From Deferrisomatales bacterium (GTDB lineage: Bacteria; Desulfobacterota; Deferrisomatia; Deferrisomatales; JACRMM01), in assembly GCA_033551855.1 (NCBI GenBank), contig JAWSUI010000077.1, positions 1-15,560 on the forward strand: a stretch of 15,560 nucleotides of DNA. The letters run 5' to 3'. Every line of letters starts with the position of its first letter. Within the stretch, counting starts at the first letter, position 1. The notes under the pieces were generated by a model. That model had not been told where the DNA came from, did no database searches, and saw nothing but the letters and a program-made list of their open reading frames with translations. Of this stretch, positions 1 to 15,091 are shown piece by piece. The position numbers and the translations under genes are program-made.

Positions 1-129
1 CTGCTCAAGACGGAAAAGCTGAAGGAACTGGCCAGGAAAAAAGAGGCGGCGGGCCGAAGTCCGAGGACCGAGGGCAGAGACGGTGAAATGACCAAGGTGG
101 CTTGGCGGCGTTGCTGCTCGGCAGTTTGA
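1..129 (+). CDS. Possible 3' end of an upstream CDS reading into the spacer repeat (partial)
   Basis: Frame 1 is open from the window edge (LLKTEKLKELARKKEAAGRSPRTEG...SAV, TGA at 127-129). The first ~15 codons look protein-like and the rest is repeat-derived. Cannot be confirmed without upstream sequence. Confidence 0.3.
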   Translation: MLKTEKLKELARKKEAAGRSPRTEGRDGEMTKVAWRRCCSAV

Positions 130-161
130 CGGCGCTGACAGGGGGAGGATCGTCGGGCGGG
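45..161 (+). repeat. 117-bp dispersed spacer repeat, copy 1
   Basis: Ungapped alignment to 3986-4102 with 7 mismatches (positions 48, 71, 91, 98, 112, 125, 141). Contains GGTGAAATGACCAAGG and two hairpins. Confidence 0.95.
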
Positions 162-263
162 TTGGCGGGGTGGGCGCCGGGGTCGTCGTTGAAAATCGTG
201 GGCTCTTGTGCCAGATTTGCGGATGATGGTTGTGCAGCATCAACCGATGGAGGAGGGTTTCCG

Positions 264-557
264 ATGGAGCCCATGAATGTAGACCAATACATCGATGATT
301 TGGCGAGAGCGGAGCATACGTCTAAGGAGGGCATTCTGAAAGAGGCTGTTCGTGCGCTCCTTCGGGAAAAAAAGCGTGCCATTCAGAGTGACCAGTTGGA
401 TCTGCTTCGGAGATATGGGGTGGCCAGCCCGAACGCTTTAGAGGAGAGAATTCGCCAGGGGCAAATCGAGGAGTCGCCCGCCTGGGAGGATCGTGTGGCG
501 TTGGACAACCTCACCTCGGCGCTGAAGCAGATCGAGCATGACCTCGCCGCTCTATGA
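264..557 (+). CDS. Small antitoxin-like hypothetical protein (97 aa), orphan
   Basis: GGAGGAGG RBS at 249-256 before ATG 264. RHH-like N-terminus (IDDLARAEHTSKEGILKEAVRALL) and a C-terminal 'PAWEDRVALDNL' segment resembling small proteins seen in TA neighbourhoods. Located in the TA array. Confidence 0.7.
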   Translation: MEPMNVDQYIDDLARAEHTSKEGILKEAVRALLREKKRAIQSDQLDLLRRYGVASPNALEERIRQGQIEESPAWEDRVALDNLTSALKQIEHDLAAL

Positions 558-600
558 ACAGCTAGGGCCGGACAGCACTAGCCCGTGACCCTCGACGACG

Positions 601-1011
601 TCAACCGCCCACCCCCTGGCATTTCTGAACTATCTCCTTCACCCTGTCTACGAACTGCATCGCATGGTCGAGAATCTCACGAGCCCGGGCTTCTGAAGTT
701 GGACAGAATTCGCCGTAATCTGACTTCTGACGCTGGTTGAATGCATCCCTCAGCACCATGGACATCTCTTTTGGAAGAATTCCAGGATGGACAAATTCGC
801 GGTCGATCAAGGCTAGAACTCCGGAATGTTTCGATGAACCAAGATCTTTTGTGATCAGCAACGCCAGTGCCGCATAGAACATGGCGTAGTATCCGCGATT
901 GACCACCCCAGCCCATTCAGCAACTTCTGAAAGGACCTGCGCCTGCTTGATGGCGTGATTTGCCTGTTGGAGGCGATAGTCGCTGAGCGCCTTGCGGTCC
1001 TCGCCCTTCAT
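601..1011 (-). CDS. HEPN domain protein (UPF0332-like), toxin partner of MNT
   Basis: 136 aa with 'VNRGYYAMFYAALALL...SKHSGV' and 'RQKSDY' motifs. ATGA overlap with the upstream MNT stop. Confidence 0.9.
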   Translation of the reverse strand: MKGEDRKALSDYRLQQANHAIKQAQVLSEVAEWAGVVNRGYYAMFYAALALLITKDLGSSKHSGVLALIDREFVHPGILPKEMSMVLRDAFNQRQKSDYGEFCPTSEARAREILDHAMQFVDRVKEIVQKCQGVGG

Positions 1012-1331
1012 ATAGGAACCCCCTCCTGCTGTATGGCTCGAATGAACGGTGAAGACCGGAGGGGAGTTTGCTCGAGCTGCTCAGGTGTGTACTCCACCGT
1101 GGTGATGATCCTGTCGAGTTGGTAGCCCACCTCCCAAGCGATCCTGCTGACGGCGTGGCAGACCTCGTCGTCAACGATGTCGAGAACGAGGCAGACGTCG
1201 AGGTCGCTCTCCGAGGAAAAATCCCCCCTGGCGCGGCTTCCGAAGACTAGGACCCTTTGCACCGGAATGCCGTTTTGGACGAGTCGCTCTTTGAGAACCT
1301 CGGCGACGGTCCTGTCCGTTGGGTGGAGCAT
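1008..1331 (-). CDS. Minimal nucleotidyltransferase (MNT) antitoxin
   Basis: 107 aa from ATG at 1331 with an AAGGA RBS. GSx10DxD motif 'FGSRARGDFSSESDLDV'. Confidence 0.92.
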   Translation of the reverse strand: MLHPTDRTVAEVLKERLVQNGIPVQRVLVFGSRARGDFSSESDLDVCLVLDIVDDEVCHAVSRIAWEVGYQLDRIITTVEYTPEQLEQTPLRSSPFIRAIQQEGVPI

Positions 1332-1425
1332 GGCTCTTGATCCTTCTCCGCTGCTACTCAAATGGCGATCGTCTCCTGAGCGTTCCGGATCCGTGGCGCA
1401 AGAGTGCCATCGGCGCGAGTTCGGA

Positions 1426-1620
1426 TCAAGGATTCCTAACCGCCCCGGCGTCGATCGGGGCGTGGAGGGAGAAGGGGAAGGCGAAGGACAGGACGTCCTC
1501 ATCGCCGGCGTCCACCGGGAGCACATCGGACACACGAACGATATCCCAGCCGCGGCCAGCGAGGGCCGCCACGGTCTTCGGCGAGACGTTCATGTCGGCG
1601 AGGAAACGAAGTGCGGTCAA
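1426..1620 (-). pseudogene. Truncated DUF5615-type PIN-like toxin
   Basis: 'LRFLADMNVSPKTVAALAGRGWDIV...GDEDVLSFA' matches the family N-terminal half. After ~1480 it runs into unrelated sequence and the expected 'R-x-L-I-T-x-D-x-D-F' half is missing. Confidence 0.8.
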
Positions 1621-1633
1621 CGTTGCGCGTCCG

Positions 1634-1864
1634 TCAGACGCTGTCGACCGTCCGGATCTGGTCGGAGACCACCCACGCCGCGTACTTGATGGCTTGCTCG
1701 ACGTCCTTGGCCTCCAACTCCGGATACGCCTCCAAAATCTCCTGTGTAGATTTCCCTCCTGCGAGCATCTTGAGGATCACGCTCACGGTGATCCTCATTC
1801 CTCGAATGACAGGCTGCCCCAAGCACACCTTCGGGTTTACGGTGATGCGGTCAAGAGCCTCCAC
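1634..1864 (-). CDS. DUF433 family antitoxin
   Basis: 76 aa 'RITVNPKVCLGQPVIRGMRITVSVILKMLAGGKSTQEILEAYPEL'. GGGGAGG RBS before GTG. Directly upstream of the DUF5615-like gene. Confidence 0.93.
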   Translation of the reverse strand: MEALDRITVNPKVCLGQPVIRGMRITVSVILKMLAGGKSTQEILEAYPELEAKDVEQAIKYAAWVVSDQIRTVDSV

Positions 1865-2018
1865 GGGACCTCCCCTTCTGCCGGCAGATGATTCGGCTAG
1901 ATCGGTGCCCCGAATCTATACGGCACCTCCCTTCGTCGCGGGCCGACCTGCGCGACACACGGCTTCATTCTACTTCGCCAGCGCATCGCACGCGAGGGTC
2001 AGGGACCGAGGCGCCCCG

Positions 2019-2150
2019 GCGGTGGTGGTTTTCGGGGCTTTCGGGCGAGGCGGAGGGTGGGAAGGCGTTTCATTGGTTTCATTGGCTCGATTGGGTTCAT
2101 TGGTTCAAGACCTGGGGGAAACCCCGACGGGGGACAGAGGACGGAGGGCG
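2019..2150 (+). repeat. Mosaic spacer: 33-bp module, GGGAAGGCGTTTC + 4x ATTGGNTYN, NGAGGAC units
   Basis: 2019-2051 matches 2919-2951 (29/33). 2059-2107 matches 5717-5747 with 4 vs 2 nonamers. GGACAGAGGACGGAGGGC at 2132-2149. Confidence 0.85.
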
Positions 2151-2189
2151 GAAGCGCCGGGGGTGTCTCTTTCGCCTGCCGCGGGAGTC

Positions 2190-2230
2190 TTGACCGCCGA
2201 TGGGATGCCTTATACATTTGATACATACAT
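2190..2230 (+). promoter_or_regulatory. sigma70-type promoter and ATACAT operator repeats of the RHH-VapC cassette
   Basis: TTGACC(2190-2195)-N17-TACATT(2213-2218). ATACAT at 2212, 2221 and 2225. Confidence 0.65.
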
Positions 2231-2251
2231 CATCGGGAAGGAGGCGCGCCC

Positions 2252-2485
2252 GTGGTTCGAACGCAGATTTACATCACCGAGCGGGAACAGCAGGGGCTCC
2301 GGGGCCTGGCCAAGACCACGGGCAAGTCCCAAAGCGAGCTGATTCGGGTGGCGATCGATCGGTTCCTGGCCGCCGCCTTGCCGGGGGAGCGTCGCGCCCT
2401 GCTGCGACAAGGGCGCGGCCTGTGGAAGGAGAGGGAGGACCTTCCCGACTTCGGCGAGCTCCGCCGGTCGTGGGATCGGCCGTAG
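2252..2485 (+). CDS. vapB: CopG/RHH-family antitoxin (VapB-type)
   Basis: 77 aa 'MVRTQIYITEREQQGLRGLAKTTGKSQSELIRVAIDRFL...GLWKEREDLPD'. AAGGAGG RBS before GTG. Confidence 0.9.
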   Translation: MVRTQIYITEREQQGLRGLAKTTGKSQSELIRVAIDRFLAAALPGERRALLRQGRGLWKEREDLPDFGELRRSWDRP

Positions 2486-2503
2486 GCTCCCGTGGGATCG
2501 GCC

Positions 2504-2890
2504 ATGGCCGCTGCGCTACTTCTGGACACGGACGTGCTCATCGACTATCTCCGCGGGCTCCCCCAAGCGGTCGGCTGGCTCGAGGACGTCGACAGCCCCC
2601 TCCTCCTCTCCGCCGTCACCGTGGCCGAGCTCTATGCCGGCGTGCGCGACGGGGAGGAACGCACCACCCTGGAAGCGTTCCTTGGGGCTTTCGAGACGAT
2701 CCCCGTGAACCGGGAGATCGCCACGCAGGGAGGTCTTTACCGAAGGGATTTCCTCCGCAGCCACGGCACGGGTCTGGCGGATGCCCTCATCGCGGCAACG
2801 GCCGCGACCGCCCAGGCGCGACTCGTCACCTTGAACGAGACACACTTCCCCATGCTCACCGAGATCCTCGTGCCGTACCGCAAGTCCTGA
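2504..2890 (+). CDS. vapC: PIN-domain toxin VapC
   Basis: 128 aa: 'LLDTDVLID', 'SAVTVAELYAG', 'LADALIAATA', 'LVTLNETHF'. Confidence 0.93.
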   Translation: MAAALLLDTDVLIDYLRGLPQAVGWLEDVDSPLLLSAVTVAELYAGVRDGEERTTLEAFLGAFETIPVNREIATQGGLYRRDFLRSHGTGLADALIAATAATAQARLVTLNETHFPMLTEILVPYRKS

Positions 2891-2918
2891 CTTCGGCGGG
2901 TCGTCCTTGCCGGGGGGA

Positions 2919-3086
2919 GCGGTGGTGGTTTTCGTGCCTTTCAGGCGAAGCCCGGGGGGGGGGAACCGCTGAGGACGGAGGACAGGAAGGGGGGAACCGC
3001 CAAGGCGCCAAGGACGCCAAGAGGGATCGAGGAGGGCTCGGTGCCGGCGAGAGGACCGGGAGCTCGGGTTGGTGAAATGACCAAGG
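2919..3086 (+). repeat. Mosaic spacer: 33-bp module, heptamers, CGCCAAGG module, GGTGAAATGACCAAGG
   Basis: 2989-3029 matches 6821-6861 (37/41). 2996-3019 is identical to 5836-5859 (24 bp). 3071-3086 is identical to 82-97. Confidence 0.9.
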
Positions 3087-3203
3087 GACAGGGTAGATTC
3101 CCGCGTGGACGGCCGGGCTGATGGGGCATCCTGGATGACGCCACACATTGCAGGAGGGGTGGTTGCCGGGGGGCAAGGCACGGCCTGTTGGCAAGGCACG
3201 GCC

Positions 3204-3264
3204 TTGACCGGCCCTCATTCCTTACCTATGATACCTGTCATTACCACGACGAGGAGGTAAGGAA
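3204..3264 (+). promoter_or_regulatory. sigma70 promoter with inverted-repeat operator for the AbrB-VapC cassette
   Basis: TTGACC(3204-3209)-N17-TATGAT(3227-3232). Perfect 10-bp inverted repeat TTCCTTACCT(3218-3227)/AGGTAAGGAA(3255-3264). Confidence 0.8.
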
Positions 3265-3265
3265 G

Positions 3266-3511
3266 ATGCTGGCTACGGTGACATCGAAGGGGCAGGTGAC
3301 CATTCCGAAGGCAATCCGGGACCTCCTCCACCTTCAACCCAACGACCGCGTCGACTTCGCCGTGGAGGAGGGACAGGTGGTCCTCAAGCCGGTGCAGACC
3401 CTGAGGGATCTGCGGGGAGCCGTTCCGGCTGCGGGGAAGGGGGATTTCGCCGAGCAGCGGGCCCGAGCGAGGGCCGCGGTGGGCCGACGCGTGCGGGAGG
3501 AGATGGAGTGA
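3266..3511 (+). CDS. AbrB/MazE/SpoVT-family antitoxin
   Basis: 81 aa from ATG 3266 with a GAGGAGG RBS. 'TVTSKGQVTIPKAIRDLLHLQPNDRVDF' signature. Confidence 0.93.
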   Translation: MLATVTSKGQVTIPKAIRDLLHLQPNDRVDFAVEEGQVVLKPVQTLRDLRGAVPAAGKGDFAEQRARARAAVGRRVREEME

Positions 3512-3939
3512 AGCGGATCTTCGTCGACACGAACCTCCTCATCCGCTACCTGACGAACGACGATCCGGCGAAGGCCGGCCGGGTCGAGCAGTGGCTCGAC
3601 AAGGCCGCGGCCGGCGAGGTCAAGCTGGTCACGGCCGAGATGGTTCTGGCCGAGACGGTCTGGGTCTTGGAGTCGAGCTACGGCCTCTCGAACGCCCAAG
3701 TCGCGCCGCTGATTCGGGGCATCCTGGCGACGCCGGGCCTGGAGGTCCTCAACGCGGCTCTGGTCACCCGGGCGCTCGACCACTACCAGGCACTCCGCGT
3801 CGACTTCGTGGACGGATACATCGCCGCCGTCATGGAGAAGCAGGGGATCGACGAGATCTTGTCCTTCGACCGGAAGCACATGCCCCGGCTCAAGGGGGTT
3901 CGGCACCGAGAACACGGAGGACGGAGGACAGAGGACTGA
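3508..3939 (+). CDS. vapC: PIN-domain toxin VapC
   Basis: 143 aa: 'FVDTNLLIRYLTNDD', 'VLAETVWVL', 'DFVDGYIA', 'ILSFDRKH'. GTGA overlap with the AbrB stop. The last residues and stop come from the heptamer repeat. Confidence 0.92.
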   Translation: MKRIFVDTNLLIRYLTNDDPAKAGRVEQWLDKAAAGEVKLVTAEMVLAETVWVLESSYGLSNAQVAPLIRGILATPGLEVLNAALVTRALDHYQALRVDFVDGYIAAVMEKQGIDEILSFDRKHMPRLKGVRHREHGGRRTED

Positions 3940-3985
3940 GGACCGACGACGGAGGACGGAGGCCAGAAGACGGAGCACGGAGGGC
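3916..3985 (+). repeat. Tandem heptamer array, 10 x NGAGGAC (degenerate)
   Basis: ggaggac ggaggac agaggac tgaggac cgacgac ggaggac ggaggcc agaagac ggagcac ggagggc. Confidence 0.92.
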
Positions 3986-4102
3986 GGCTGCGGGCCGAAG
4001 TCCGAGGACCGGGGGCAGAGACGGTGAAATGCCCAAGGCGGCTTGGCGGCGTCGCTGCTCGGCAGCTTGACGGCGCTGACACGGGGAGGATCGTCGGGCG
4101 GG
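3986..4102 (+). repeat. 117-bp dispersed spacer repeat, copy 2
   Basis: 110/117 identical to 45-161, same orientation. Confidence 0.95.
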
Positions 4103-4180
4103 AAGCCGGGGGGGACGTTGGTGGTCTCGGCGCCCTTCGCACAAGCCTGGGGGCGGGGAGCCAGGGGCTGGTGAGGTGAC

Positions 4181-4420
4181 CTACGTTTGCTCGTAGGCGC
4201 GCAGGAAATCGTCCCGCGAGATTCCTGCTTGGGAACGGATGGTCCGAAGGGTCGAGCCCTTGATGTGACGGTGATTCGGCCGGGTCAGGGGCGTCCGCTT
4301 GCCGTCTGGGGTTTCCCGGACCATGGCGATGTGCTCCCCCTCGCGGACCAAACGAGACCCCAGCGGCTCCAGGGCTTTGAGGACCCCGGCCTTCGGAGCG
4401 TCGACCGGAAATCTCGGCAT
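4181..4420 (-). CDS. hicA: HicA-family toxin
   Basis: 79 aa 'VLKALEPLGSRLVREGEHIAM...PNHRHIKGSTLRTIRSQAGISRDDF' with a G-x-H motif. TGATG overlap with hicB. Confidence 0.85.
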   Translation of the reverse strand: MPRFPVDAPKAGVLKALEPLGSRLVREGEHIAMVRETPDGKRTPLTRPNHRHIKGSTLRTIRSQAGISRDDFLRAYEQT

Positions 4421-4644
4421 CAGATGACCATCTCGGTCTCGGCCACGAATGCCTCGAGGACCGGCGATTCGTCCTGAAACTCGTCTGCGCCAAACGTCTC
4501 GACATGGAACCGAATCGCTGACTTCACGTCCGCGAGCGCTTCCTCGTACGTGTCGCCTTCCCCGACGACGATGCCTTTGAGCCCGAGAGGGTATGCCACG
4601 TACCCGTCCGGGTGCTTTTCCACGACGATCTTGAACTGGGCCAT
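4420..4644 (-). CDS. hicB: Short HicB-family antitoxin (no obvious DNA-binding domain)
   Basis: 74 aa from ATG 4644 with a GAGGAGGAG RBS. 'GYVAYPLGLKG...GEGDTYEEALADVKSAIRFH'. Confidence 0.88.
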   Translation of the reverse strand: MAQFKIVVEKHPDGYVAYPLGLKGIVVGEGDTYEEALADVKSAIRFHVETFGADEFQDESPVLEAFVAETEMVI

Positions 4645-4730
4645 TTCTCCTCCTCGTCCCCGGGGGACCGCGGGGGGCGGAGGGAGGTCGGGCGGGGCGA
4701 TGAGTTGGGGAAATGACCAACTGGCGGGGC

Positions 4731-4900
4731 GACATCCGTGCCTACGACGAGGCGAAGGGTTGTTCTTCCGACCCGGTGCCCTTCGAGCAGGCTGTGGCAG
4801 CATTCTAAAAAGCCTCTCCGGATTGAGTTACCAGCTCTTCATCGAACGGTCGCCTCAGAAGAACCTCGGGGCACTGGGCCACGGGCAACAGGCAATCCGG
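4731..4900 (+). pseudogene. Remnant of a RelB-like/RelE TA pair (antitoxin C-terminus + toxin N-terminus)
   Basis: 4731-4808 translates DIRAYDEAKGCSSDPVPFEQAVAAF*. 4823-4900 translates (TTG)SYQLFIERSPQKNLGAL..., a RelE-like start. Both are truncated. Confidence 0.7.
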
Positions 4901-4908
4901 CCCCCCCT

Positions 4909-5304
4909 TCACCAGACCGTAGGAACGCGGGAAGTACGAATCTTCCGGTCGCGACTCAGCACGGGAACGCCGAGGCTCACCGCTGTGGCTGCTATGAGAC
5001 GGTCTGGAAGGTCTGGCACATCGGATCGTGGAACGTCCTTCATGGCCTCGACGATCCCTCGTTCGACGGGAACTTCGACGAGGGACGCTTGAGGCTCGTG
5101 AAGCTTGTCGAGAACGCGGAGAAACACCTCCGGTCCGATTCGCCCCTTTTCGCAAAGATACACCAACTCAACGAGGGTGATAGCGGATATGGCAATGCTG
5201 TCGCCGGGACTCACCTCCATAGCCGCTCGGGCCGCACGAGACAGTCGTGGATCATCGAAGAGTGCCCAGACCAGTGTATGCGTGTCGGCCACGGCCCGGA
5301 TCAT
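4909..5304 (-). CDS. vapC: PIN-domain toxin VapC
   Basis: 131 aa from ATG 5304: 'VADTHTLVW', 'ISAITLVEL', 'DLPDRLIAATA', 'VLSRDRKI'. TGATG overlap. Confidence 0.92.
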   Translation of the reverse strand: MIRAVADTHTLVWALFDDPRLSRAARAAMEVSPGDSIAISAITLVELVYLCEKGRIGPEVFLRVLDKLHEPQASLVEVPVERGIVEAMKDVPRSDVPDLPDRLIAATAVSLGVPVLSRDRKIRTSRVPTVW

Positions 5305-5534
5305 CAGAGATCGCCTCGCGGAAAGCCGGACCACATCTCTTGCCGAGCCTCATCGATATCCTCCGCAGAGGGCGCGGCGCCCAGATCGGCGCACAACCCC
5401 ACCGTTGGGCGCATCTCCCCGCCGGGGCTGCCCAATTGCTGCTCCGACAGCTCCCGGGCGATGAGCTCGATCAGTCTGAGCTTGTCTGCGGGAGGAAGGT
5501 GTCGCGCAAGAGAGACGACCTGATCCACGCTCAC
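5304..5534 (-). CDS. Small antitoxin partner of VapC
   Basis: 76 aa from GTG 5534 (GAGGAG RBS 6 nt upstream): 'LPPADKLRLIE...GLCADLGAAPSAEDIDEARQEMW'. Translationally coupled to vapC. Confidence 0.85.
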   Translation of the reverse strand: MSVDQVVSLARHLPPADKLRLIELIARELSEQQLGSPGGEMRPTVGLCADLGAAPSAEDIDEARQEMWSGFPRGDL

Positions 5535-5582
5535 GGACAACTCCTCTCGGGCCCGGCGCGTCTTTGTGATGACCCGGGGTTG

Positions 5583-5610
5583 ATTCTACCCCGTCACACG
5601 AGGCGTGCAA
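5583..5610 (-). promoter_or_regulatory. sigma70-type promoter of the antitoxin-VapC cassette
   Basis: Minus strand TTGCAC-N16-TAGAAT. Confidence 0.65.
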
Positions 5611-5640
5611 GGTGCAGGGCGCAGATCGGGGGCGGGAAGC

Positions 5641-5938
5641 GCGGAGGACGGGGGGGAGGCGGAGGACCGATGACCGAGGACCGAGGACCGAGGACGGAGG
5701 ACGGGGGACGGGGGAAGGGAAGGCGTTTCATTGGGTTGATTGGTTCAGCGTTGGTCGGGTGGGTCGAGCGCAGCGGACCCACCAGCTGAGGACCGAGGAC
5801 GCAGGGCGGTTGCCGGGTCGCAGGTCCTGGTTCCGACCGCCAAGGCGCCAAGGACGCCAGGGACGCTCGGAAACCGCGGCCCTCGGGGCTGGTGAGCGAC
5901 CGCGGAAGTTGGGGGGGAATGACCAAGGTGGCATGGCG
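5641..5938 (+). repeat. Mosaic spacer: heptamers, nonamer module, REP-like hairpin, CGCCAAGG module, AATGACCAAGG module
   Basis: 7 heptamers at 5661-5709; nonamer module 5717-5747; hairpin GGTGGGTC/GACCCACC 5758-5783; 5836-5859 identical to 2996-3019; 5918-5938 matches 87-107 (20/21). Confidence 0.9.
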
Positions 5939-5962
5939 AGGTGCCCGAAGGTCACGGACAGC

Positions 5963-6253
5963 TCACTCGGGAAGCGATCTCAGCAGGCGGGAGACCTTGC
6001 GGTAGACCTCCCTGCGGTGCCCCGCGCGGACGACGAGGACGAGCAGCGCCCTGTCGCGAATCTGGTAGAGGAGCCGGTAATCCCCTTCTCGGATCCGCCA
6101 CAGGTTCTCAGGCCCTTCGATCTTCTTCGCGTTCTCCGGTCGAGGGTCGGCCCGCAAGGAGACGAGTCGCAGCAAGAGGGCAGTGCGCGTCTTGGCGGGG
6201 AGCTTCCGGAACTCGCGGGCCGCCCCCGGCAGGACATCGACCGTGTCGCCCAC
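5963..6253 (-). CDS. relE: RelE/ParE-family toxin
   Basis: 96 aa 'DPRPENAKKIEGPENLWRIREGDYRLLYQI...VVRAGHRREVYR'. Confidence 0.93.
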   Translation of the reverse strand: MGDTVDVLPGAAREFRKLPAKTRTALLLRLVSLRADPRPENAKKIEGPENLWRIREGDYRLLYQIRDRALLVLVVRAGHRREVYRKVSRLLRSLPE

Positions 6254-6261
6254 GGGCGACC

Positions 6262-6528
6262 CTACCGCCGGTGCCCGAGCTCTTCCAGCAGGGAATCCAG
6301 CGAAACGGGCTTCTCCCCGCTGCCTTCCGCCTCGTGGAGCGCCTGCAGCGCATCCAGGAGATCCAGTCGGTCCTCGAGCCTCTCCAGTAGCTCCAAGTCC
6401 TCCGCGGAGACGATGGCCGCCAAGGGCTTCCCGTGGCGCTCCACGAGGAAGCGTTCCCCGGCATAGGCCACTTTGTTCAGCAGGTCGGCGAAGTTGTCTC
6501 GAGCTTCGGTCACGGCCAGACGGGGCAT
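6262..6528 (-). CDS. Phd/YefM-family antitoxin
   Basis: 88 aa from ATG 6528: 'VTEARDNFADLLNKV...VERHGKPLAAIVSAEDLELLE'. Confidence 0.93.
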   Translation of the reverse strand: MPRLAVTEARDNFADLLNKVAYAGERFLVERHGKPLAAIVSAEDLELLERLEDRLDLLDALQALHEAEGSGEKPVSLDSLLEELGHRR

Positions 6529-6545
6529 TGCTTCCAATCCTTTCT

Positions 6546-6597
6546 AATCGAACAAATCGTACGTTTTCAGTATCGGCGCGGAGACGCTGCGGGTCAA
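6546..6597 (-). promoter_or_regulatory. sigma70-type promoter and operator repeats of the Phd-RelE cassette
   Basis: Minus strand TTGACC-N17-GATACT. Tandem AATCGAACA/AATCGTACG repeats just downstream of the -10. Confidence 0.65.
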
Positions 6598-6612
6598 GGG
6601 GGGGGCGGGGGC

Positions 6613-6861
6613 GGGAACCGCAAAGGCGCTGAGGACGCAGAGAGGTGCAAAGACGGTCTCACGCAACGATGCGATGTGTAGAGGCAAAGGCAAAGGCAAG
6701 GGCGGTCTCACGCAACGGCGCAACGTGGAAAGGCAAGGTCAAAGGCGGTTTCGCGCAACGACGCAACGGCCCAACGTGGCCCCTCCCCCGGTTGGGACGC
6801 GGGCGGTTTTCGCGGCTCTTGGGGGGAACCGCCAAGACGCCAAGAACGCCAAGGGGGACCG
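6613..6861 (+). repeat. Terminal mosaic spacer with 3 degenerate direct repeats and the CGCCAAG module
   Basis: Units at 6648-6678, 6697-6727 and 6740-6778 (CAARGRCGGTYTCRCGCAACG...), separated by GGCAAA runs. 6821-6861 matches 2989-3029. Confidence 0.85.
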
Positions 6862-7030
6862 GGGTGGTTCACGGGTCACGCTTCCATGTGGTGAAATCAC
6901 CACGCCTTGGGGATGCCCCGGGCTGAGCTCGCTGATTTGGAACGGCGGTTGGGGATTTCACCGCCCGCCCGCAGGGGGGCGCGGGGCGCAGGAGCCCGGC
7001 CGATGCGCATTGGGCGGGCGCGCCCGCTGC

Positions 7031-7046
7031 TGGCCCGTAGATTGCA
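7031..7046 (+). promoter_or_regulatory. sigma54 (-24/-12) promoter
   Basis: TGGCCC-GTAGA-TTGCA with exact GG-N10-GC spacing, ~75 bp upstream of the receiver gene. Confidence 0.7.
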
Positions 7047-7120
7047 CACCAACTCCGGTGCCCTCGGTTTGCATTGCTTCCTTGCCGATCCATTTTGCTC
7101 GCGTCAGAGGGGTGGAACCC

Positions 7121-7516
7121 GTGAACAAGGTACTGATCGTCGACGACGAGGATCTGGTGTCCCTGGGACTGGCGCGCGTACTGCGGCGGCACGATCGGGA
7201 CATCCGGTGCGCGAAGAGCGCCGAGGAGGCCTTGGAGGCGCTGGCCGAGTGCCCCTACGGCCTGTGCTTTCTCGACGTGCGCCTGCCCGGGATGAGCGGA
7301 CTGGAAGCGCTGGCGCACATCCGCGAGCGGTCGCCCCACACGCGCATCGCGATGATGTCGGCCGGGTATCTGAGCCCGGAGGACGAGGCCGCGATCTCGC
7401 GACAGGCCCACTACTTCGTCGGCAAGCCCTTCGACGTGAGCTTCGTGCGGTCGATCGCCGAGGAGGCGATGGGCCCCCCGCCTACTCCAGGTCAAACCTC
7501 TTCATCTGATACCTGA
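7121..7516 (+). CDS. Single-domain response regulator (CheY-like receiver)
   Basis: 131 aa from GTG 7121: 'VLIVDDE', 'FLDVRLPGMSG', 'MMSA', 'GKPF'. 3' end overlaps the convergent regulator gene by 35 bp. Confidence 0.9.
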   Translation: MNKVLIVDDEDLVSLGLARVLRRHDRDIRCAKSAEEALEALAECPYGLCFLDVRLPGMSGLEALAHIRERSPHTRIAMMSAGYLSPEDEAAISRQAHYFVGKPFDVSFVRSIAEEAMGPPPTPGQTSSSDT

Positions 7517-8891
7517 GGGTGTCGTAGCTGATCCGCAGGAGCTTGGCGGCCTTGCGCTTGTTGTGCTTGGCCTTCTCCAGCGCCTGCACGATCAGGTCGC
7601 GCCGCACCTCCTCGAGGGACAGCCCCCCGTCGGGGAGCACGAGGCGGGACACCGGCAGCGGGGGCTGGGGTTCCGGGTCGGGAGGCGCCCCCGGGGGTCC
7701 GGAGCCGACGAGCTCCTTCGGCAGGTGCTCGACCCCGATCGTGTCGGAGGCCTCGAGGACCACGAGTCGTTCCAGGACGTTCTTCAGCTCCCGCACGTTG
7801 CCCGGCCAGGGGTAGGCGAGGAGGGCCGCCCGGCACCCGGGCGAGAGGGCCTGCACCCGCGGGCGCTTGTACTTGGCCGAGAGGCTGACGAGGAAGTGCT
7901 CCGTGAAGGCGAGGACGTCGCCGCCGCGGTCCCGCAGGGGGGGCACGACCAGGGAGAAGGCGTCGAGGCGGTAGAGGAGGTCGAGGCGAAAGGCGCCCCG
8001 GTCCGCGGCCTCCCGGAGGTCCCGGTTGGTGCTGGCGATCACGGTGGCGTGGATCGGGATGTCTTCCTTGCCGGCGATGCGGCGGATCGTCCGCTCCTGG
8101 AGGACCCGAAGGAGCTTTCCCTGGAAGGCGAAGGGCATGTCCCCGATCTCGTCCAGGAGGATGGTGCCCCGGCCGGCCAGCTCGAAGACCCCCTTCTTCA
8201 TCGTCTTGGCGTCGGTGAAGGCGCCCCGCTCGTGGCCGAAGAGCTCGCTCTCGATGAGGGACTCGGTGAGGGCGGTGCAGTTGACCCCGATGAAGGGCGC
8301 GTAGTCGGGGGCGTCGCGGCGCATCCGGTGGTGGACGTGGCGGGCCACCACCTCCTTGCCCGTGCCGCTCTCCCCGGTGACGAGGATCGTGTCGACCCCG
8401 GCCGCGGCGATCTTCTCGACTTTCTCCCGAAGCTCGGCCATGCCCGGGGACCGGCCCACGAGCTCGGGGACGTCGGGCTCCCCCTCGGCGCTGCGCCGCT
8501 GCTCGAGCTCTCGCTTGAGCCGCTGCTTCTCCGCCAGGTTTCCGATGACCTTGCGGACCTCGTTGAGGTCGAAGGGCTTGGTAAGGTAGTCGGACGCCCC
8601 GGCCTTGAGGGCGCGGGTCGCGGTCTGGGCGGTGGCGTCGCCGGTGAGCATCACGACCTCGGTGTCCGCCCCCCGGTCGCGGAGCTCGCGCAGCACGTCG
8701 AGGCCGCTGCCGTCCTGGAGCCCGATGTCGAGGAGGACGACCTCGGGCAGCCATGCGAAGACCTTGTCGACCAGCCCCCTGGCGGTGGGCGTGGACTGGA
8801 CCTCGTACCCCTGCCGCTTGAGGACCCGGGTGAGGTTGAGGAGGATGAGGGGGTCGTCCTCGGCGATGAAGACCCGTCCCGGGGAGCTCAC
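7482..8891 (-). CDS. sigma54-dependent NtrC-family response regulator (REC-AAA+-Fis HTH)
   Basis: 469 aa from GTG 8891 (GTGA overlap with the kinase stop). GESGTGKE, ESELFGHERGAFTDA, LLDEIGDM, WPGNVREL and a C-terminal HTH. Confidence 0.96.
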   Translation of the reverse strand: MSSPGRVFIAEDDPLILLNLTRVLKRQGYEVQSTPTARGLVDKVFAWLPEVVLLDIGLQDGSGLDVLRELRDRGADTEVVMLTGDATAQTATRALKAGASDYLTKPFDLNEVRKVIGNLAEKQRLKRELEQRRSAEGEPDVPELVGRSPGMAELREKVEKIAAAGVDTILVTGESGTGKEVVARHVHHRMRRDAPDYAPFIGVNCTALTESLIESELFGHERGAFTDAKTMKKGVFELAGRGTILLDEIGDMPFAFQGKLLRVLQERTIRRIAGKEDIPIHATVIASTNRDLREAADRGAFRLDLLYRLDAFSLVVPPLRDRGGDVLAFTEHFLVSLSAKYKRPRVQALSPGCRAALLAYPWPGNVRELKNVLERLVVLEASDTIGVEHLPKELVGSGPPGAPPDPEPQPPLPVSRLVLPDGGLSLEEVRRDLIVQALEKAKHNKRKAAKLLRISYDTLRYQMKRFDLE

Positions 8892-10357
8892 GGCCCCTCC
8901 TCCCCCAGGCCATCCCGGGCGCCGGCGGCACCGTCCAGGGGGAGCTCGATCGTGAAGCAGGCCCCGCCCTCTTCCCGGTTGGCCGCGGTGAGGCTTCCCC
9001 CGTGCTGTGCCACGACGCCCCTCGAGATGGCGAGGCCCAAACCGGTGCCGCTCGCCTTCTGGGTGTAGAAGGGCTCGAAGAGCCTGTTCTCCAAGCCCGG
9101 GGCGATGCCGTGGCCGGTGTCGCAGACCCGGATCACGACCCGGTCGCCGTTCCGCCCGGTGGACACGGAGAGGGTGCCGCCGTCGGGCATGGCCTCGAAG
9201 GCGTTGGCCGCAAGGTTCAGGAACACCTGGACGAGCTTCTCGGGGTCGGCGACGACCGGCGGCACGTTCTCCCCCCACTGACAGGCGACCTGCACCCGGC
9301 CGTCGCCATGGCCCCTTCCCCTCGCCCGGTTCCTCGAGAGCTCCAAGGCCCGGTCCAGGAGGGGGTGCACGTCGACCCGGGCGAAGTGGGGCGGCTTCGG
9401 CTTGGCAAATTCCAGCATGCCGCGCATGAGGGAGTCGATCCGACCGATCTCGCCGACGGACATGGCGAGGATGTCCCTGACGTCGGGCGCGAGCTCCGCC
9501 TCCTCGTTCAGGACGTCGAGGGACACCTTGATGCCGGCCAGGGGGTTCTTGATCTCGTGGACCAGACCGGCCGCCACCTCGCCGCAGGCCACCATGTGCT
9601 CGGTCCGCTGAAGCTGCACCATCTGCTCCTTCAGGGACCGGGCCATCTGGTTGAAGGACTCCCCGAGCTCCCGGAACTCGTGCTCCAGCCCCTCCACCCC
9701 GTGGTCGAGGTTGCCCCCCTCGATCTGCCGGGTCGCGTGCAGGAGCGCGTCGATGGGCCGGGAGAACGACCGGAAGACGCTGACGGCGAGGCCGACGGCC
9801 AGCAGGGGACCCAAGGCCAGAAGGACATAGAGGACCCGGTTGGTCCAGAGGATCTGGGTCACCACCTGGGACGTCTTGCGCTCGAGCTGGGCCGTGGTGG
9901 CGGCGATCATCTCGTGGATCTTGTCCGCGAGCTCCGCCCCCTCCCCGAAGGCGGCGTCCTCCTCGGCCTTCAGGCGCTCGGTGTTGGCGCGGATCGTCAG
10001 AACCCTGCTGATCGAGCCCTCGAAGCGCCGGGTGCGGTCGAGAAGGTCCTCGAGGACCGCGTGGGTGGGCCGGGCGTGGTGGCACCCGAAGCAGCCCTCG
10101 AGGGACGAGCCCATGGCCATCACGTTCTCGACGATGCTGTCCACCCCCTGGAAGAATCGCGTGTTCCGGGCGGCGACGTTGGCCTTGACGGTCTGGACCC
10201 GCACCAGCAGCTCCTCGCGCATGAGCTCGATCTGGTGCAGCCGCACGAGCTCGTCGAGCTCGCTGGTGCTGCGGTGGATGCTTCGCGCGATGTACAGCCC
10301 GGCCAGGACGAACACGGCGCAGAAGACGACGGTGGCGACGAGGACCTTGCGTCTCAT
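8888..10357 (-). CDS. Membrane sensor histidine kinase with HAMP domain and periplasmic CxxCH motif
   Basis: Two hydrophobic segments flank a sensor region containing CFGCH. H-box HEIKNPL, N-box QVFLNLAANA, DTGHGI, GTGLGL. Confidence 0.95.
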   Translation of the reverse strand: MRRKVLVATVVFCAVFVLAGLYIARSIHRSTSELDELVRLHQIELMREELLVRVQTVKANVAARNTRFFQGVDSIVENVMAMGSSLEGCFGCHHARPTHAVLEDLLDRTRRFEGSISRVLTIRANTERLKAEEDAAFGEGAELADKIHEMIAATTAQLERKTSQVVTQILWTNRVLYVLLALGPLLAVGLAVSVFRSFSRPIDALLHATRQIEGGNLDHGVEGLEHEFRELGESFNQMARSLKEQMVQLQRTEHMVACGEVAAGLVHEIKNPLAGIKVSLDVLNEEAELAPDVRDILAMSVGEIGRIDSLMRGMLEFAKPKPPHFARVDVHPLLDRALELSRNRARGRGHGDGRVQVACQWGENVPPVVADPEKLVQVFLNLAANAFEAMPDGGTLSVSTGRNGDRVVIRVCDTGHGIAPGLENRLFEPFYTQKASGTGLGLAISRGVVAQHGGSLTAANREEGGACFTIELPLDGAAGARDGLGEEGP

Positions 10358-10408
10358 GGAAAGACCGGGAATCGGGGGCGGGGGGTCGGGGGTCGGGCTC
10401 TCACACGG

Positions 10409-11323
10409 TCACCGGTTGATGTAGTCGTACGTCGCGAGGTCGAGACCCGCGGTCTTCGCGTAGGCCGAGACCGCGGCGTAGTCGTCGTCGGTGGTCGGGA
10501 TGAAGCGGGCCGCCCCGAAGCGGCGGAGCACGGCGACCCCTTCCTCGTCCTCATGCAGGAGAAGCAGGGCGTTTCGCAGACGGTCGGTCAGGGCGGGGTC
10601 CAGGTCGGCGCGCACGGCCAGCGCGTTCTCGGGCACGGGGGGGGACCAGGCCAGGATCTCGAGCTCCTGGGCCGCCTCGGGATTCGCGCTCACGAAACGC
10701 CGGAACACGGTGTTCTTGAGGGCTCCGGCGTCCGCCTTTCGGTCGAGCACGTCGGCCACGACCCCCTCGTGGGTCCCGGCGAAGTAGGTCTCGCGGAAGT
10801 GGGTCGGATAGTCCACGACCCCGTGCTCCTTGAAGTAGGCCAGGGGGAACAGATACCCCGCGGTGGTGGCCTGGTCGACGAAGGCGAAGACCCCGCCCCT
10901 CATGTCCGCGGGGCCCCGAATGCCGCTGTCGGCCCGGACCACCAGGAGCCCGTGGTAGGTGGACGTGCCGTCGGGGCTCTCGGGCCGGGCGAGGACCCGC
11001 AGGCCGAGCTTCTGCTGGGAGAGGACGTACGTGAAGCTGCCGAAGAAGGCGCCGTCGAGCTTCCCCTGCTGGAAGCTCCCCACGATATTCCCGTAGCGGG
11101 GAAGCACCTTGAGCTCGATGCCGCGCCCGACCCGACGGGAGAGGATGTCCGCGAGCGGCCGGTAGCGCCGGAGCTGCTCGAAGAGGTCCTGCTCCGGAAG
11201 GACGCCGATGACGAGGGGAGCCTGCGCCGGAGCGCCCTGGGGGCCGGCCGCCCGGGCGAGAACCGTCACGCCGAGCGAGAATGCCAAAAGGAAAAGCCCC
11301 CCGATCACGGTCTTACACGGCAT
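10409..11323 (-). CDS. PhnD/phosphonate-type periplasmic substrate-binding protein (no transporter in the operon)
   Basis: Signal peptide; 'YHGLLVVRADSGI', 'FAFVDQATTAGYLFP', 'FAGTHEGVVADVL..KADAGA'. Confidence 0.9.
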   Translation of the reverse strand: MPCKTVIGGLFLLAFSLGVTVLARAAGPQGAPAQAPLVIGVLPEQDLFEQLRRYRPLADILSRRVGRGIELKVLPRYGNIVGSFQQGKLDGAFFGSFTYVLSQQKLGLRVLARPESPDGTSTYHGLLVVRADSGIRGPADMRGGVFAFVDQATTAGYLFPLAYFKEHGVVDYPTHFRETYFAGTHEGVVADVLDRKADAGALKNTVFRRFVSANPEAAQELEILAWSPPVPENALAVRADLDPALTDRLRNALLLLHEDEEGVAVLRRFGAARFIPTTDDDYAAVSAYAKTAGLDLATYDYINR

Positions 11324-12648: not shown

Positions 12649-13530
12649 GTGTGGATCGACGCGCACGTCCACTGGTGCCTGTTCGGGCGCCCGCCCGAGG
12701 AGGTGGTGCCCGAGCTCGAGCGGCTCGCCGGCGCCGGGTGCGAGGCCGTGGTGGTCTTGCCCCTTCCCGCCATGGGGGCGCCCCCCGAGCGGGCGGTCCA
12801 CCTGATCCCGGGAGCCTACCGGGACTTCACCGGCATCGACCAGGAACGTATCGCCCACGACGACCTGGAGGCCTGGAGGTCCTTCCATGGGCTGTGGGCC
12901 GCCGAGCCCCGCCCACTGCGGGTGCACTCCTTCCTCGACGTGCGGGCCTGGGACGGGCGGTCCGACCTGGAGGCCTGGTGGGGCCCGGGGCACGCCGGGC
13001 TCAAGAACATCCTCGTCCTCGAGGAGGACGAGGCCAAGATGCGCATGCCGCCCCTGCGCCGGGTGCCCGGCATCGGCCGGGAGAAGTACCTGGAGGCGCA
13101 CCGGCACGTCTTCGCGGCGGCCGCCCGCTGGGGCGTTCCCCTCCTCTACCACGCGGACCTCACCCTGCACGCCGCCTTCGTGGAGGAGTGCCTCGCGGCG
13201 CACCCGGGGCTACGGGTCTGCATCCCGCACCTGGGGTTCAGCCGCCGCCGCATGGCCGAGCTGCTGGAACGGTTCCCCGGGGTGATGACCGACATCTCGA
13301 GCCTGCGGCCCTTCATCGAGGCCGACCCCGAGGCCTACCGGTCCTTCATGCTGGAGCTCCCCGACCGGGTGCTCCTGGGGAGCGACGCCATCGCCTGCCG
13401 AGACCTCGGCCCGGCCCTGGAATACGTAGCCTGCGTCCGGGGGCTCCGCCTGCCGGAAGAGGTGCAGGAGGCGGTGCTGCGGGGCAACGCCCGGCGCTTC
13501 CTGGGGAACCCACCCGACGCTTCCCCTTGA
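12649..13530 (+). CDS. Amidohydrolase-family (TIM-barrel metal-dependent) protein
   Basis: 'IDAHVH' HxH motif, 'LYHAD', 'IPHLG', 'LLGSDA', C-terminal 'GNARRFL'. Confidence 0.88.
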   Translation: MWIDAHVHWCLFGRPPEEVVPELERLAGAGCEAVVVLPLPAMGAPPERAVHLIPGAYRDFTGIDQERIAHDDLEAWRSFHGLWAAEPRPLRVHSFLDVRAWDGRSDLEAWWGPGHAGLKNILVLEEDEAKMRMPPLRRVPGIGREKYLEAHRHVFAAAARWGVPLLYHADLTLHAAFVEECLAAHPGLRVCIPHLGFSRRRMAELLERFPGVMTDISSLRPFIEADPEAYRSFMLELPDRVLLGSDAIACRDLGPALEYVACVRGLRLPEEVQEAVLRGNARRFLGNPPDASP

Positions 13531-13545
13531 AGGGGGGCCATCGGC

Positions 13546-13675
13546 GGACGCCTCGGCCGGGTGTCCCTGCCCCGGTCGAAGCGGACAGGCCGGCAACAGG
13601 GCGGGTGGGGGGCCGAGGGAAGCACGGCATTCCCCCGCCGACGCGCCCGCGGACGCCTTGGCGAGGCGTCCCTAC
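13546..13675 (-). repeat. Two co-oriented GTAG-type REP-like palindromes
   Basis: 13651-13675 reads GTAGGGACGCCTCGCCAAGGCGTCC on the minus strand. 13546-13570 is a 20/25 copy. Located between convergent genes. Confidence 0.75.
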
Positions 13676-13712
13676 CGAGGGAAGACCCGACTCCCCCTTG
13701 GAGGGGAGGCTC

Positions 13713-13949
13713 TCAGGCGGGGCCCAGGAGGCGGGCGATCGCCTCGGGACCCAGGAGCTTCCCGACGGACCGGACCTCCCCGTCGACGACCAGCGCGGGA
13801 AACGCAAAGACCCCGTGACGGGCGATCTCGTCGAGGTCGGTCACCTTCGTGACCGACGCCTCCCGCCCCGAGAGGGCCACCGCCTCCACGGCGGCCTCGT
13901 ACATCCGGATGCACTTGGGACAGCCCACACCGAGGACCTGGATCTCCAT
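13713..13949 (-). CDS. Small redox-active disulfide protein (MTH895-type thioredoxin family)
   Basis: 78 aa 'IQVLGVGCPKC...VTKVTDLDEIARHGV..FPALVVDGEV'. Confidence 0.92.
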   Translation of the reverse strand: MEIQVLGVGCPKCIRMYEAAVEAVALSGREASVTKVTDLDEIARHGVFAFPALVVDGEVRSVGKLLGPEAIARLLGPA

Positions 13950-13962
13950 CTCCGTGCTCCTT

Positions 13963-14682
13963 TCACCCGGCCGGCGGGAGCTGGTTGACGATCAGGTACA
14001 GCCCCACCGCGGCCAGGAGCGCCCCGGCGGCGCGGCGAAACCACAGGTTGGCCCGAGCGTAGCGCTCCGACGCCACCAGCCGCCGCACCGCGCCCACGGA
14101 GGTGCCGGCGACGACGAGCAGGGCGCAGTGCCCCACGGCGTAGAGCCAGACGAGCAGCAGGCCGTAGCCGAGGCTGGCCTTCGAGGCCACGTAGGCCAGC
14201 ACCACCGCGAGCACCGGGGCGGCGCAGGGGGCCGAGAGGACGCCGAAGAGCAGACCCATGCCGAAGGCGGCCCCGAGGCCGCTCCGGGCGGGGCGCACCC
14301 GCCCGAGCCGATTCGACAAGCCCGGCAGGCTCAGGTGCCAGAGGTCCCAGAACTGGGCGGCGGCCAGCAGGCACACGGCCGCGAGGACCCAGGGCCAGAA
14401 GGGTCCCGCGGCCCCGAAGTAGGTGCCGGCCGAGACCGCCGCGACGGCCATGGCGGAGAAGGACGCGGCCAGTCCGGCGACGAAGACGAGGGAGGTGAGG
14501 AGCCCCCGCCGCCAGTCGGTGACGGCGGCGTGCCCGCCGGTCAGGCCGATCAGCACCGGCACGGCCGCGAGGCTGCAGGGGTTGGCGGCGGTGGTGACCC
14601 CGCCCAGGAAGACGGCCGCCGCGGCCAGCCAGGGGCGGCTTTGGAGCCAGTAGCTCGTCAGCTCGGACAGCCCCTCGAGCAC
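13963..14682 (-). CDS. ccdA: CcdA/DsbD-type transmembrane electron transporter (cytochrome c biogenesis family)
   Basis: Polytopic membrane protein with two PC motifs: 'ANPCSLAAVP' and 'SAPCAAPVL'. Confidence 0.88.
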   Translation of the reverse strand: MLEGLSELTSYWLQSRPWLAAAAVFLGGVTTAANPCSLAAVPVLIGLTGGHAAVTDWRRGLLTSLVFVAGLAASFSAMAVAAVSAGTYFGAAGPFWPWVLAAVCLLAAAQFWDLWHLSLPGLSNRLGRVRPARSGLGAAFGMGLLFGVLSAPCAAPVLAVVLAYVASKASLGYGLLLVWLYAVGHCALLVVAGTSVGAVRRLVASERYARANLWFRRAAGALLAAVGLYLIVNQLPPAG

Positions 14683-14686
14683 GACG

Positions 14687-15091
14687 TCAGCCCCTCCGGG
14701 GCCAGAAGCCCAGGTCGGCCAGGCGCTCCAGGAGCTGGCGGGCGTCCAGGAGACCCTGGTGACGCGAGACCTCGACCCCCCCGGCGTCCAGGAAGACGAG
14801 GGTCGGGCTCAGGACCACCCGGTACGCCCGGACCTCCGCCGTGTCGCGGTCGACCCGGATGTCGCGGAAGATTACGGCGTCCCCGGTCTGCTCGGTCACC
14901 CGGCCGATCTCCTCCTTGAGCTCGACGCAGTACCGGCACCGGGGCCCGAGGCCGAACACCAGGACGGTGGGCCGGCCGATCTCGGGGGCGGTCGATGGGC
15001 CGGCCTGGGGGCCGCCCTCGGTCCGGCACCCCGCGGCGGCCGCCAGGGCCAGGAGCAGCGCGGCGGCGGCCGCAAGCTTCGTCGGTCTCAC
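14687..15091 (-). CDS. Thioredoxin-family lipoprotein
   Basis: 134 aa from GTG 15091 (GGGAGG RBS). Lipobox-like AAAGC, CRYC active site, 'SPTLVFLD' cis-Pro loop. Confidence 0.88.
   Translation of the reverse strand: MRPTKLAAAAALLLALAAAAGCRTEGGPQAGPSTAPEIGRPTVLVFGLGPRCRYCVELKEEIGRVTEQTGDAVIFRDIRVDRDTAEVRAYRVVLSPTLVFLDAGGVEVSRHQGLLDARQLLERLADLGFWPRRG

Follow-up and report, generated by a model that had tools for sequence, protein, structure and literature searches.

A repeat-laden toxin-antitoxin array in a Deferrisomatales bacterium as a probable accumulation hotspot

Rows of small toxin-antitoxin (TA) modules in mixed orientation and with variable content are known from sedentary chromosomal integrons, from clusters of attC sites lacking integron-integrases (CALINs) and from pdif modules, and hairpin cassettes with a PF05635 or PF13366 gene are related to the 23S rRNA intervening sequences that bear an open reading frame. 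To our knowledge the spread of stand-alone chromosomal TA modules is an open question. Short repeats at gene junctions are described, in the available parts of the papers cited here, as paired short-tandem-repeat 'multicopy nucleotide sequences' in Geobacter metallireducens and G. bemidjiensis (PMC2700814, PMC2996986), where in G. bemidjiensis several families share one region in 31% of the occupied intergenic regions (PMC2996986); paired tandem-repeat sites at Geobacter gene junctions are found also in PMC3543383, and PF05635 genes and TA pairs both occur inside cas operons (PMC3936711). Here we describe a TA array with repeat-bearing spacers from a Deferrisomatales bacterium. The window analysed has 15,560 nt and is the entire contig C77 (JAWSUI010000077.1) of assembly GCA_033551855.1 (G000; 4.24 Mb in 132 contigs), hence the left end of the array is unseen. 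With 40 PIN matches and four large repeat-bearing TA clusters, this genome is good material for the question of TA spread.

It seems probable, if by no means certain, that this array is a hotspot of TA accumulation reshuffled by ordinary recombination and not a cassette-capture machine. We prefer a hotspot over dedicated capture because the same repeat elements fill ordinary gene junctions genome-wide. The initial annotation had taken the spacer repeats for recombination handles or insertion scars through which self-contained TA cassettes are gained, shuffled and deleted; the negative searches for attC, dif and integron integrase (IntI), the variable content and the position of some joins at repeat arms agree with that proposal, whereas the repeats are not a TA kit and several joins are imprecise.

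The repeats of the array consist of tandem-repeat arms (B, C, E and F), further modules (A, D and X) and larger units:

45..176, + strand: 132-nt direct repeat, copy 1, including module A; 91% to 3986-4117, no further copy in the genome
2019..2061, + strand: module D, array-specific
2059..2152, + strand: unpaired nonamer arm E, then short heptamer arm B
2919..3035, + strand: module D, heptamer arm B, nonamer arm C (arm of a GxxExxY element)
3914..3987, + strand: heptamer arm B, ~10.6 units, unpaired (arm of a four-helix-bundle element)
3986..4117, + strand: 132-nt direct repeat, copy 2 (module A at 4023), ending in the GGGGACGT motif
5642..5746, + strand: heptamer arm B then nonamer arm E, unpaired
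5752..5785, + strand: repetitive extragenic palindromic (REP) hairpin of the type linked to REP-associated tyrosine transposases (RAYT), GTCG variant
5787..5931, + strand: arm B, arm C, module X, module A (5913)
6610..6867, + strand: degenerate arm C, octamer arms F, arm C, all unpaired

Module A reads GGTGAAATGACCAAGG. The modules were recovered where they had been annotated, exactly or off by a few bases, and lie far above chance, as 200 shuffles of 1-7100 held on average at most 0.03 copies per module. The heptamers also stand at the places first given for them, but those at 61 and 4002 are single units only; likewise, spacers do occupy most junctions, but three (558-600, 1332-1425 and 4880-4908) are without any module. 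The 132-nt direct repeat, the octamer family at 6647-6770 and the REP at 5752-5785 had not been noticed before. Module D at 2907-2925 overlaps a terminator-like hairpin, and the C-X-A block at 5808-5931 is 79% identical to C101:4349-4467. Rfam applied to the window gave three matches at chance level, none reaching the gathering score.

In the whole genome, 11 short-repeat families gave 119 non-coding sites. Gene calls and repeat patterns were home-made, so the genome-wide counts are approximate, and TA genes were mapped with profiles from the genome's own TA proteins (120 matches in 51 clusters). On this map 19 of the 119 sites lie within 300 nt of a TA gene and 100 do not, which speaks against the modules being a kit of TA arrays as initially proposed. 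The spacer at 5642-5800 has the order B-E-REP, which is found again on C37 and C94 with non-TA genes on either side, the C37 composite being flanked by housekeeping genes which we take, by eye, to resemble mnmA and mtaB. The trpE-trpG and trpG-trpD junctions carry differing repeat families or none in G000, G001, G002, G004 and G005 while the gene order is constant. A TA locus with an arm on C12 has as its counterpart in G004 an empty site without arm. Loci homologous to the AbrB/PIN module of the array had adjoining arms in 1 of 32 cases by a strict detector (near-duplicates dropped) and, when the closest 39 of 80 were inspected visually, in about 8. At one such locus (L054:4040-4477 and 6096-6530, on G001:C212) we observed 441-nt direct repeats (85%), unrelated to the array modules, that enclose an AbrB/PIN homologue and defence-like gene fragments.

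Arms B and C derive from hairpin elements enclosing four-helix-bundle or GxxExxY genes. Heptamer arm B forms an inverted pair around a four-helix-bundle gene on C116, while nonamer arm C encloses a GxxExxY remnant on C82, consisting of a fused gene start and end, and a whole GxxExxY gene both in Sorangium (L081) and in G008 (L060). Repeats of other families likewise border the C43 GxxExxY gene and additional genes of the four-helix type. With a 28-nt arm-C pattern we found 122 loci in many phyla (3 of 64 parts of the GTDB collection, with ~2700 stretches estimated overall), and 55 of them have an inverted partner within 900 nt. Inverted pairs exist for arms E and F as well, and no gene-bearing copy was seen among those inspected. 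Folding is seen in paired elements (five examples, z -2.4 to -7.5) and not in the array spacers (six tested, z +0.8 to -2.0). An inverted arm pair is present at 22 of the 119 sites; all 12 arms of the array are unpaired, and within it we found single co-oriented arms only and no element gene. The REP family of 5752-5785 precedes a RAYT remnant on C36 and adjoins a RAYT gene in G005. In the literature searched, which covered few subscription journals, such repeats were not found connected with four-helix-bundle genes, GxxExxY genes or TA arrays. Four related longer four-helix-type genes were also observed (G000:C3:142200-142950, C5:6000-6400, C50:600-1300 and C25:22300), and those on C3, C5 and C50 adjoin nonamer repeats of their own.

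An element protein, of the GxxExxY nuclease-fold or the four-helix-bundle kind, might itself move DNA lying beside one arm, in which case half arms would mark captures. Such one-ended capture would agree with the intact element genes in the genome, with arms sitting directly on TA ends (the PIN stop replaced at 3914, and joins in the relative X5 described below) and with the C-X-A block, which is copied between two arrays with non-arm DNA attached. However, inverted arms of one family were never seen to enclose a TA module; complete pairs on C12, C24, C48 and C82 stand beside TA modules and not around them; most sites genome-wide are unpaired regardless (97/119); and long arm-C loci from other phyla had a TA match in just 4 of 80, with profiles of low sensitivity. 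We regard one-ended capture as very unlikely.

Nine TA-like modules without other cargo span 264-6537, and both this and their orientation (+,-,-,+,+,-,+,-,-) are as first annotated. The calls were made with Pfam, NCBIfam, ESM Atlas and within-genome BLAST:

264..557, + strand: MJ0235-family gene (PF27273), likely antitoxin
538..588, + strand: partner reading frame of the MJ0235-family gene, cut at ~565, 16 codons left
601..1011, - strand: HEPN gene (PF05168)
1008..1331, - strand: minimal nucleotidyltransferase (MNT; PF01909)
1426..1620, - strand: DUF5615 PIN-like toxin, truncated, profile positions 2-44 of 110
1634..1864, - strand: DUF433 antitoxin
2190..2218, + strand: sigma70-like promoter of RHH/PIN
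2252..2890, + strand: ribbon-helix-helix (RHH) antitoxin and PIN toxin
3204..3232, + strand: sigma70-like promoter of AbrB/PIN
3266..3939, + strand: AbrB antitoxin and PIN toxin; a heptamer arm replaces the toxin's last codon and stop
4181..4644, - strand: HicB-like antitoxin and HicA toxin (HicA PF07927; partner by position, weak DUF5678 match)
4727..4880, + strand: RelBE remnant with antitoxin end and toxin start; 80% to the intact C101 pair
4909..5540, - strand: VapB-like antitoxin and PIN toxin
5963..6537, - strand: Phd antitoxin and RelE/ParE toxin
6569..6597, - strand: sigma70-like promoter of Phd/RelE

The modules are not of different families throughout, as had been stated, for three PIN and two RelE are among the nine; and where at least four sigma70 promoters of their own had been counted, our scan gives three (2190, 3204 and, on the minus strand, 6597; shuffle mean 0.6). 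Four of the nine modules are damaged (the MJ0235 partner, DUF5615, the RelBE remnant and the AbrB-linked PIN), with toxins cut in three and the stop lost in the fourth. Among 39 homologue loci, 36 show a Pro-stop end of the AbrB-linked PIN toxin (the remaining 3 were displayed at a different offset), and here the heptamer array stands instead. As the MJ0235 family is fused to TumE in part of the Atlas clusters (13-23% of two clusters), we infer from the sequence that its partner is a cut toxin. Three further large TA clusters with repeat elements were observed at C24:1-16000 (L006), C101:1-5100 (L001) and C48:1-6200 (L007); all adjoin surface-polysaccharide or cytochrome genes, and those on C24 and C101 also hold Y1 transposase genes. 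In another genome, L057 (G005:C236) has three TA pairs and heptamer arrays within a cas operon, near cas2-like and RAMP-like genes (by eye).

Relatives were compared as assembled contigs, namely X1 (99% identical), X5 (~88%, thus a related species) and X2, and gain and loss were not told apart. TA content had been suspected to vary and does so in X1 and X5, where neighbours differ as well. The X5 contig joins 3908 to 6843 with a 5-letter microhomology and 83 letters on the short side, and skips HicAB, the RelBE remnant, VapBC and Phd/RelE; in X5 the 132-nt repeat is short of 37 nt and has a different flank left of the module A copy at 82 (A82). X1 has 326 other letters in place of 6605-7108, its HEPN gene has a different neighbour past 600, and its MJ0235 gene retains the partner frame; the X1 and X2 contigs diverge from the window at 565, and the frame stays open over the 30 letters shown. 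At the joins at 565, 600 and 1477 the relatives are 93-99% alike. Breakpoints were expected to fall in modules, and those at 3908/6843, 6604 and 82 touch modules, but those at 565, 600, 1477, 4880 and 7109 do not. Unlike precise cassette exchange, the junctions at 565, 600, 1477 and 4880 miss modules and cut toxins, and with 4 of 9 modules damaged at junctions we did not see the precise excision that leaves whole genes. It should be noted that the joints 565-5679, 1332-5672 and 5709-3199 are weak, with fewer than 40 letters on one side or unknown letters between. A divergence at 1332 in X1 and X5 was not counted as a breakpoint but ascribed to a diverged paralogue. The G002 contig breaks at window position 6900, G004 and G030 have the two-component genes and no TA match in the stretches examined, and a 24-nt anchor pattern found 0 matches in JGI metagenome contigs.

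Module A leads to the regulatory genes that bound the array on its right, where the order is receiver gene, NtrC-type activator, kinase and PhnD-like gene (profile searches and within-genome BLAST):

82..97, + strand: module A copy
3069..3086, + strand: module A copy, best palindrome
4699..4721, + strand: module A copy; 22/23 nt same as the site upstream of the sigma54 promoter in the G004 orthologous locus
6887..6965, + strand: two A-type palindromic sites, likely native enhancer of the receiver gene
7031..7046, + strand: sigma54 -24/-12 match
7121..7516, + strand: stand-alone receiver gene, right anchor of the array
7482..8891, - strand: NtrC-type sigma54 activator, likely module A binder

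Module A probably serves the adjacent NtrC-type regulator as its enhancer site. In the orthologous two-component locus A-type palindromes, three in G004 and two in G030, lie upstream of a sigma54 match, which precedes an NHL-type gene and multiheme cytochromes. The copy at 4699-4721 scores 41 against the G004 site, the best of 100 shuffles being 24. Ten further promoter regions of the NHL-type gene (one being G030 again) gave a sigma54 match in 4, with an A-type site 99-121 nt upstream in 3 of these 4, and gene-body controls gave the combination in 0 of 10; the arrangement is thus seen in G004, G030 and 2 further genomes. In G000 the NHL-cytochrome operon begins contig C86, 108 nt before its own sigma54 match. 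No contig ends overlap the start of C77 or C86, hence adjacency to C86 is a matter of synteny only, and judged by that synteny the array may lie between two divergent sigma54 promoters. Window 6887-11323, taken with G000:C86, L026 and L028, shows a set of PhnD-like, kinase, NtrC and receiver genes that in relatives is linked to the NHL-type gene and multiheme cytochrome operon, with a conserved candidate enhancer palindrome. The stretch 3069-3200 was considered as a decayed enhancer and sigma54 unit and rejected; its spacing fits, but the -24/-12 pattern fails. A short tandem duplication at 3170-3208, just before the AbrB -35 box, looks like the G004 sigma54 promoter and stands about as far from A as that promoter does, but the spacing fails.

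Palindrome A could instead be the place where a trans-acting recombinase integrates TA-bearing circles in tandem, one A per block, with the arms as passengers. In accordance with such accretion, the five copies mark off five blocks, none of them without a TA module, the identity of A tends to drop from the left end, the 16-mer with at most 2 mismatches is found only on contig C77 within the genome (a weaker copy lies on C101), and the point at which X5 departs from the window coincides with the left edge of A82. On the other hand, orthologous loci without TA match have kept A, as a likely enhancer, ~100-120 nt ahead of their sigma54 promoters; the copies share anything between ~13 and 132 nt of surrounding sequence, where a fixed core would be constant; and the X5 and X1 joins at 3908/6843, 6604/7109, 565 and 600 do not use A. 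Further, none of the six tyrosine-recombinase matches of the genome is on C77, where the left flank of the array is unassembled. Accretion at A thus seems rather unlikely to us.

As annotated at first, neither attC nor dif sites were found in the array, with 0 RYYYAAC...GTTRRRY pairs in 1-7200 (pattern search) and the sole dif-like match in the genome on C90; the best integron integrase match among all 132 contigs reached 84 bits with TIGR02249 vs a cut-off of 265. A reverse transcriptase was rejected as the array enzyme, as the single gene (G000:C70:16166-17455) is unlinked and has by eye a group II intron-like leader. Superintegrons typically carry TA pairs in mixed orientation, and the array is repeat-rich and at a contig edge, which could point to a decayed integron array or to an assembly artefact. 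The former is contradicted by the missing attC pairs, by the lack of an IntI over cut-off and by the unfolded spacers, and the latter by the X1 contigs from an independent run, which at 98-99% identity bridge most of the array (600-2022, 2049-2917, 3219-4019 and 4073-6604). We consider both extremely improbable.

The genome has 11 Y1-transposase matches, and the GGGGACGT motif, found at ~4110 in the array, also marks Y1-transposase gene ends. RAYT/Y1 transposases of the HUH type, acting in trans on REPs and GGGGACGT ends, might cut, join and delete blocks. The REP at 5752 and the GGGGACGT end at 4110 would serve as substrates, Y1 genes lie inside the C24 array and at the end of the C101 array, and two copies of the C101 Y1 gene end lie between C101 TA modules. 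But there is one REP and one GGGGACGT end among nine modules, C77 has no Y1 or RAYT gene, and no observed join maps to either kind of site, so this too is in our opinion a very doubtful explanation. Within the C101 array (L001:2451, 3412, 6578), the two additional copies of the Y1 transposase gene's end motif stand in the same orientation among the TA modules, which parallels module A.

Returning to the hotspot, we propose that its history would run as follows. TA modules would reach gene junctions by a general route needing no repeats; addiction would hinder their loss, so that dispensable junctions would pile up beside the sigma54 promoter region. Hairpin elements and REPs would insert at the new junctions, as in the trp operon, and imprecise short-homology deletions would trim the elements to half arms, cut toxins and spare antitoxins. 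Host recombination via longer shared pieces (the 132-nt repeat, the C-X-A block and paralogous TA genes), together with DNA of relatives, would reshuffle the blocks, and the repeats would be incidental substrates, not dedicated sites.

Several observations weigh against this. The arms called in the array are all (12 of 12) on the + strand. Five A copies stand inside the array, each close to a TA module, which a hotspot leaves unexplained, and the six A-type sites of the region match the leftmost at 16, 16, 15, 13, 14 and 13 of 16 positions. In X5, repeat arms abut both ends of AbrB/PIN. The proposed enrichment of repeats next to TA genes holds at the large TA clusters, since all four (at least 5 TA matches each) carry sites, and over all TA gaps it amounts to 17/97 with a site vs 78/1871 of other gaps (P=1.6e-6). 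The parts of the array and its variation were seen as such, while the steps of the mechanism are inferred and none was directly observed. By size, repeat sites occur in 4/42 small, 1/5 medium and 4/4 large clusters; that so few small clusters have one, and that TA gaps show no enrichment once the four arrays are set aside (3/61 vs 78/1871, P=0.74), speaks for the hotspot.

That an integrase-in-trans system adds TA blocks at the enhancer palindrome, or that a hairpin-element nuclease transduces neighbouring TA modules, we hold to be unlikely but worth keeping in view: if true, accretion or arm transduction would be a route of spread for chromosomal TA modules without visible vehicle. As a caution, co-oriented modular spacers can be the remains of eroded hairpin elements, and a role as recombination sites does not follow from their arrangement. 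Two points are of lasting value: the arms are tied to four-helix-bundle and GxxExxY genes, and the recurring enhancer-like site offers a clean test of site-specific accretion.

Elsewhere in the window, an open frame at 1-126 enters from the contig edge and ends within the 132-nt repeat, with no family match, and 12649-15091 has an ordinary-looking set of an amidohydrolase, two thioredoxin-like genes and a DsbD/CcdA membrane gene. CRISPR-like arrays with periods 61 and 71 were observed at G000:C2:130-587, C7:83-851 and C39:138-2851.

The described systems each share some features with this locus. The array differs from integrons, CALINs and pdif modules in that no attC, IntI or dif pairs were found, in having no uniform site per module, and in junctions that are imprecise and cut genes. 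As in REP/RAYT systems, a spacer holds a REP whose family is linked to RAYT, and Y1 transposases are present in the genome; unlike them, there is a single REP, with no doublets or arrays between modules and no RAYT gene on the contig. The TAACTGA heptamers of Beggiatoaceae, cyanobacteria and Bacteroidetes are, in the available parts of PMC4679880, likewise oriented, mostly unpaired, intergenic and cross-phylum with no known spreading mechanism, but they have a different unit, lie mostly just upstream of start codons and have a proposed translational role; the word 'toxin' is absent from that paper (PMC4679880).

The Geobacter repeats resemble ours in their 7-8-nt tandem units, often as opposite-strand pairs at variable distance, and in their place at ordinary gene junctions. 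In the parts covered, those papers interpret them, unlike here, as regulator sites and find class 1 pairs often beside IS110 transposases, of which none was found in G000 (0 PF02371 and PF01548 matches in the assembly); the same parts have no four-helix-bundle or GxxExxY link, and Table S4 is without a 'toxin' entry (PMC2700814). The hairpin cassettes with a PF05635 or PF13366 gene share arms B and C with the array, which differs from them in having single arms only.

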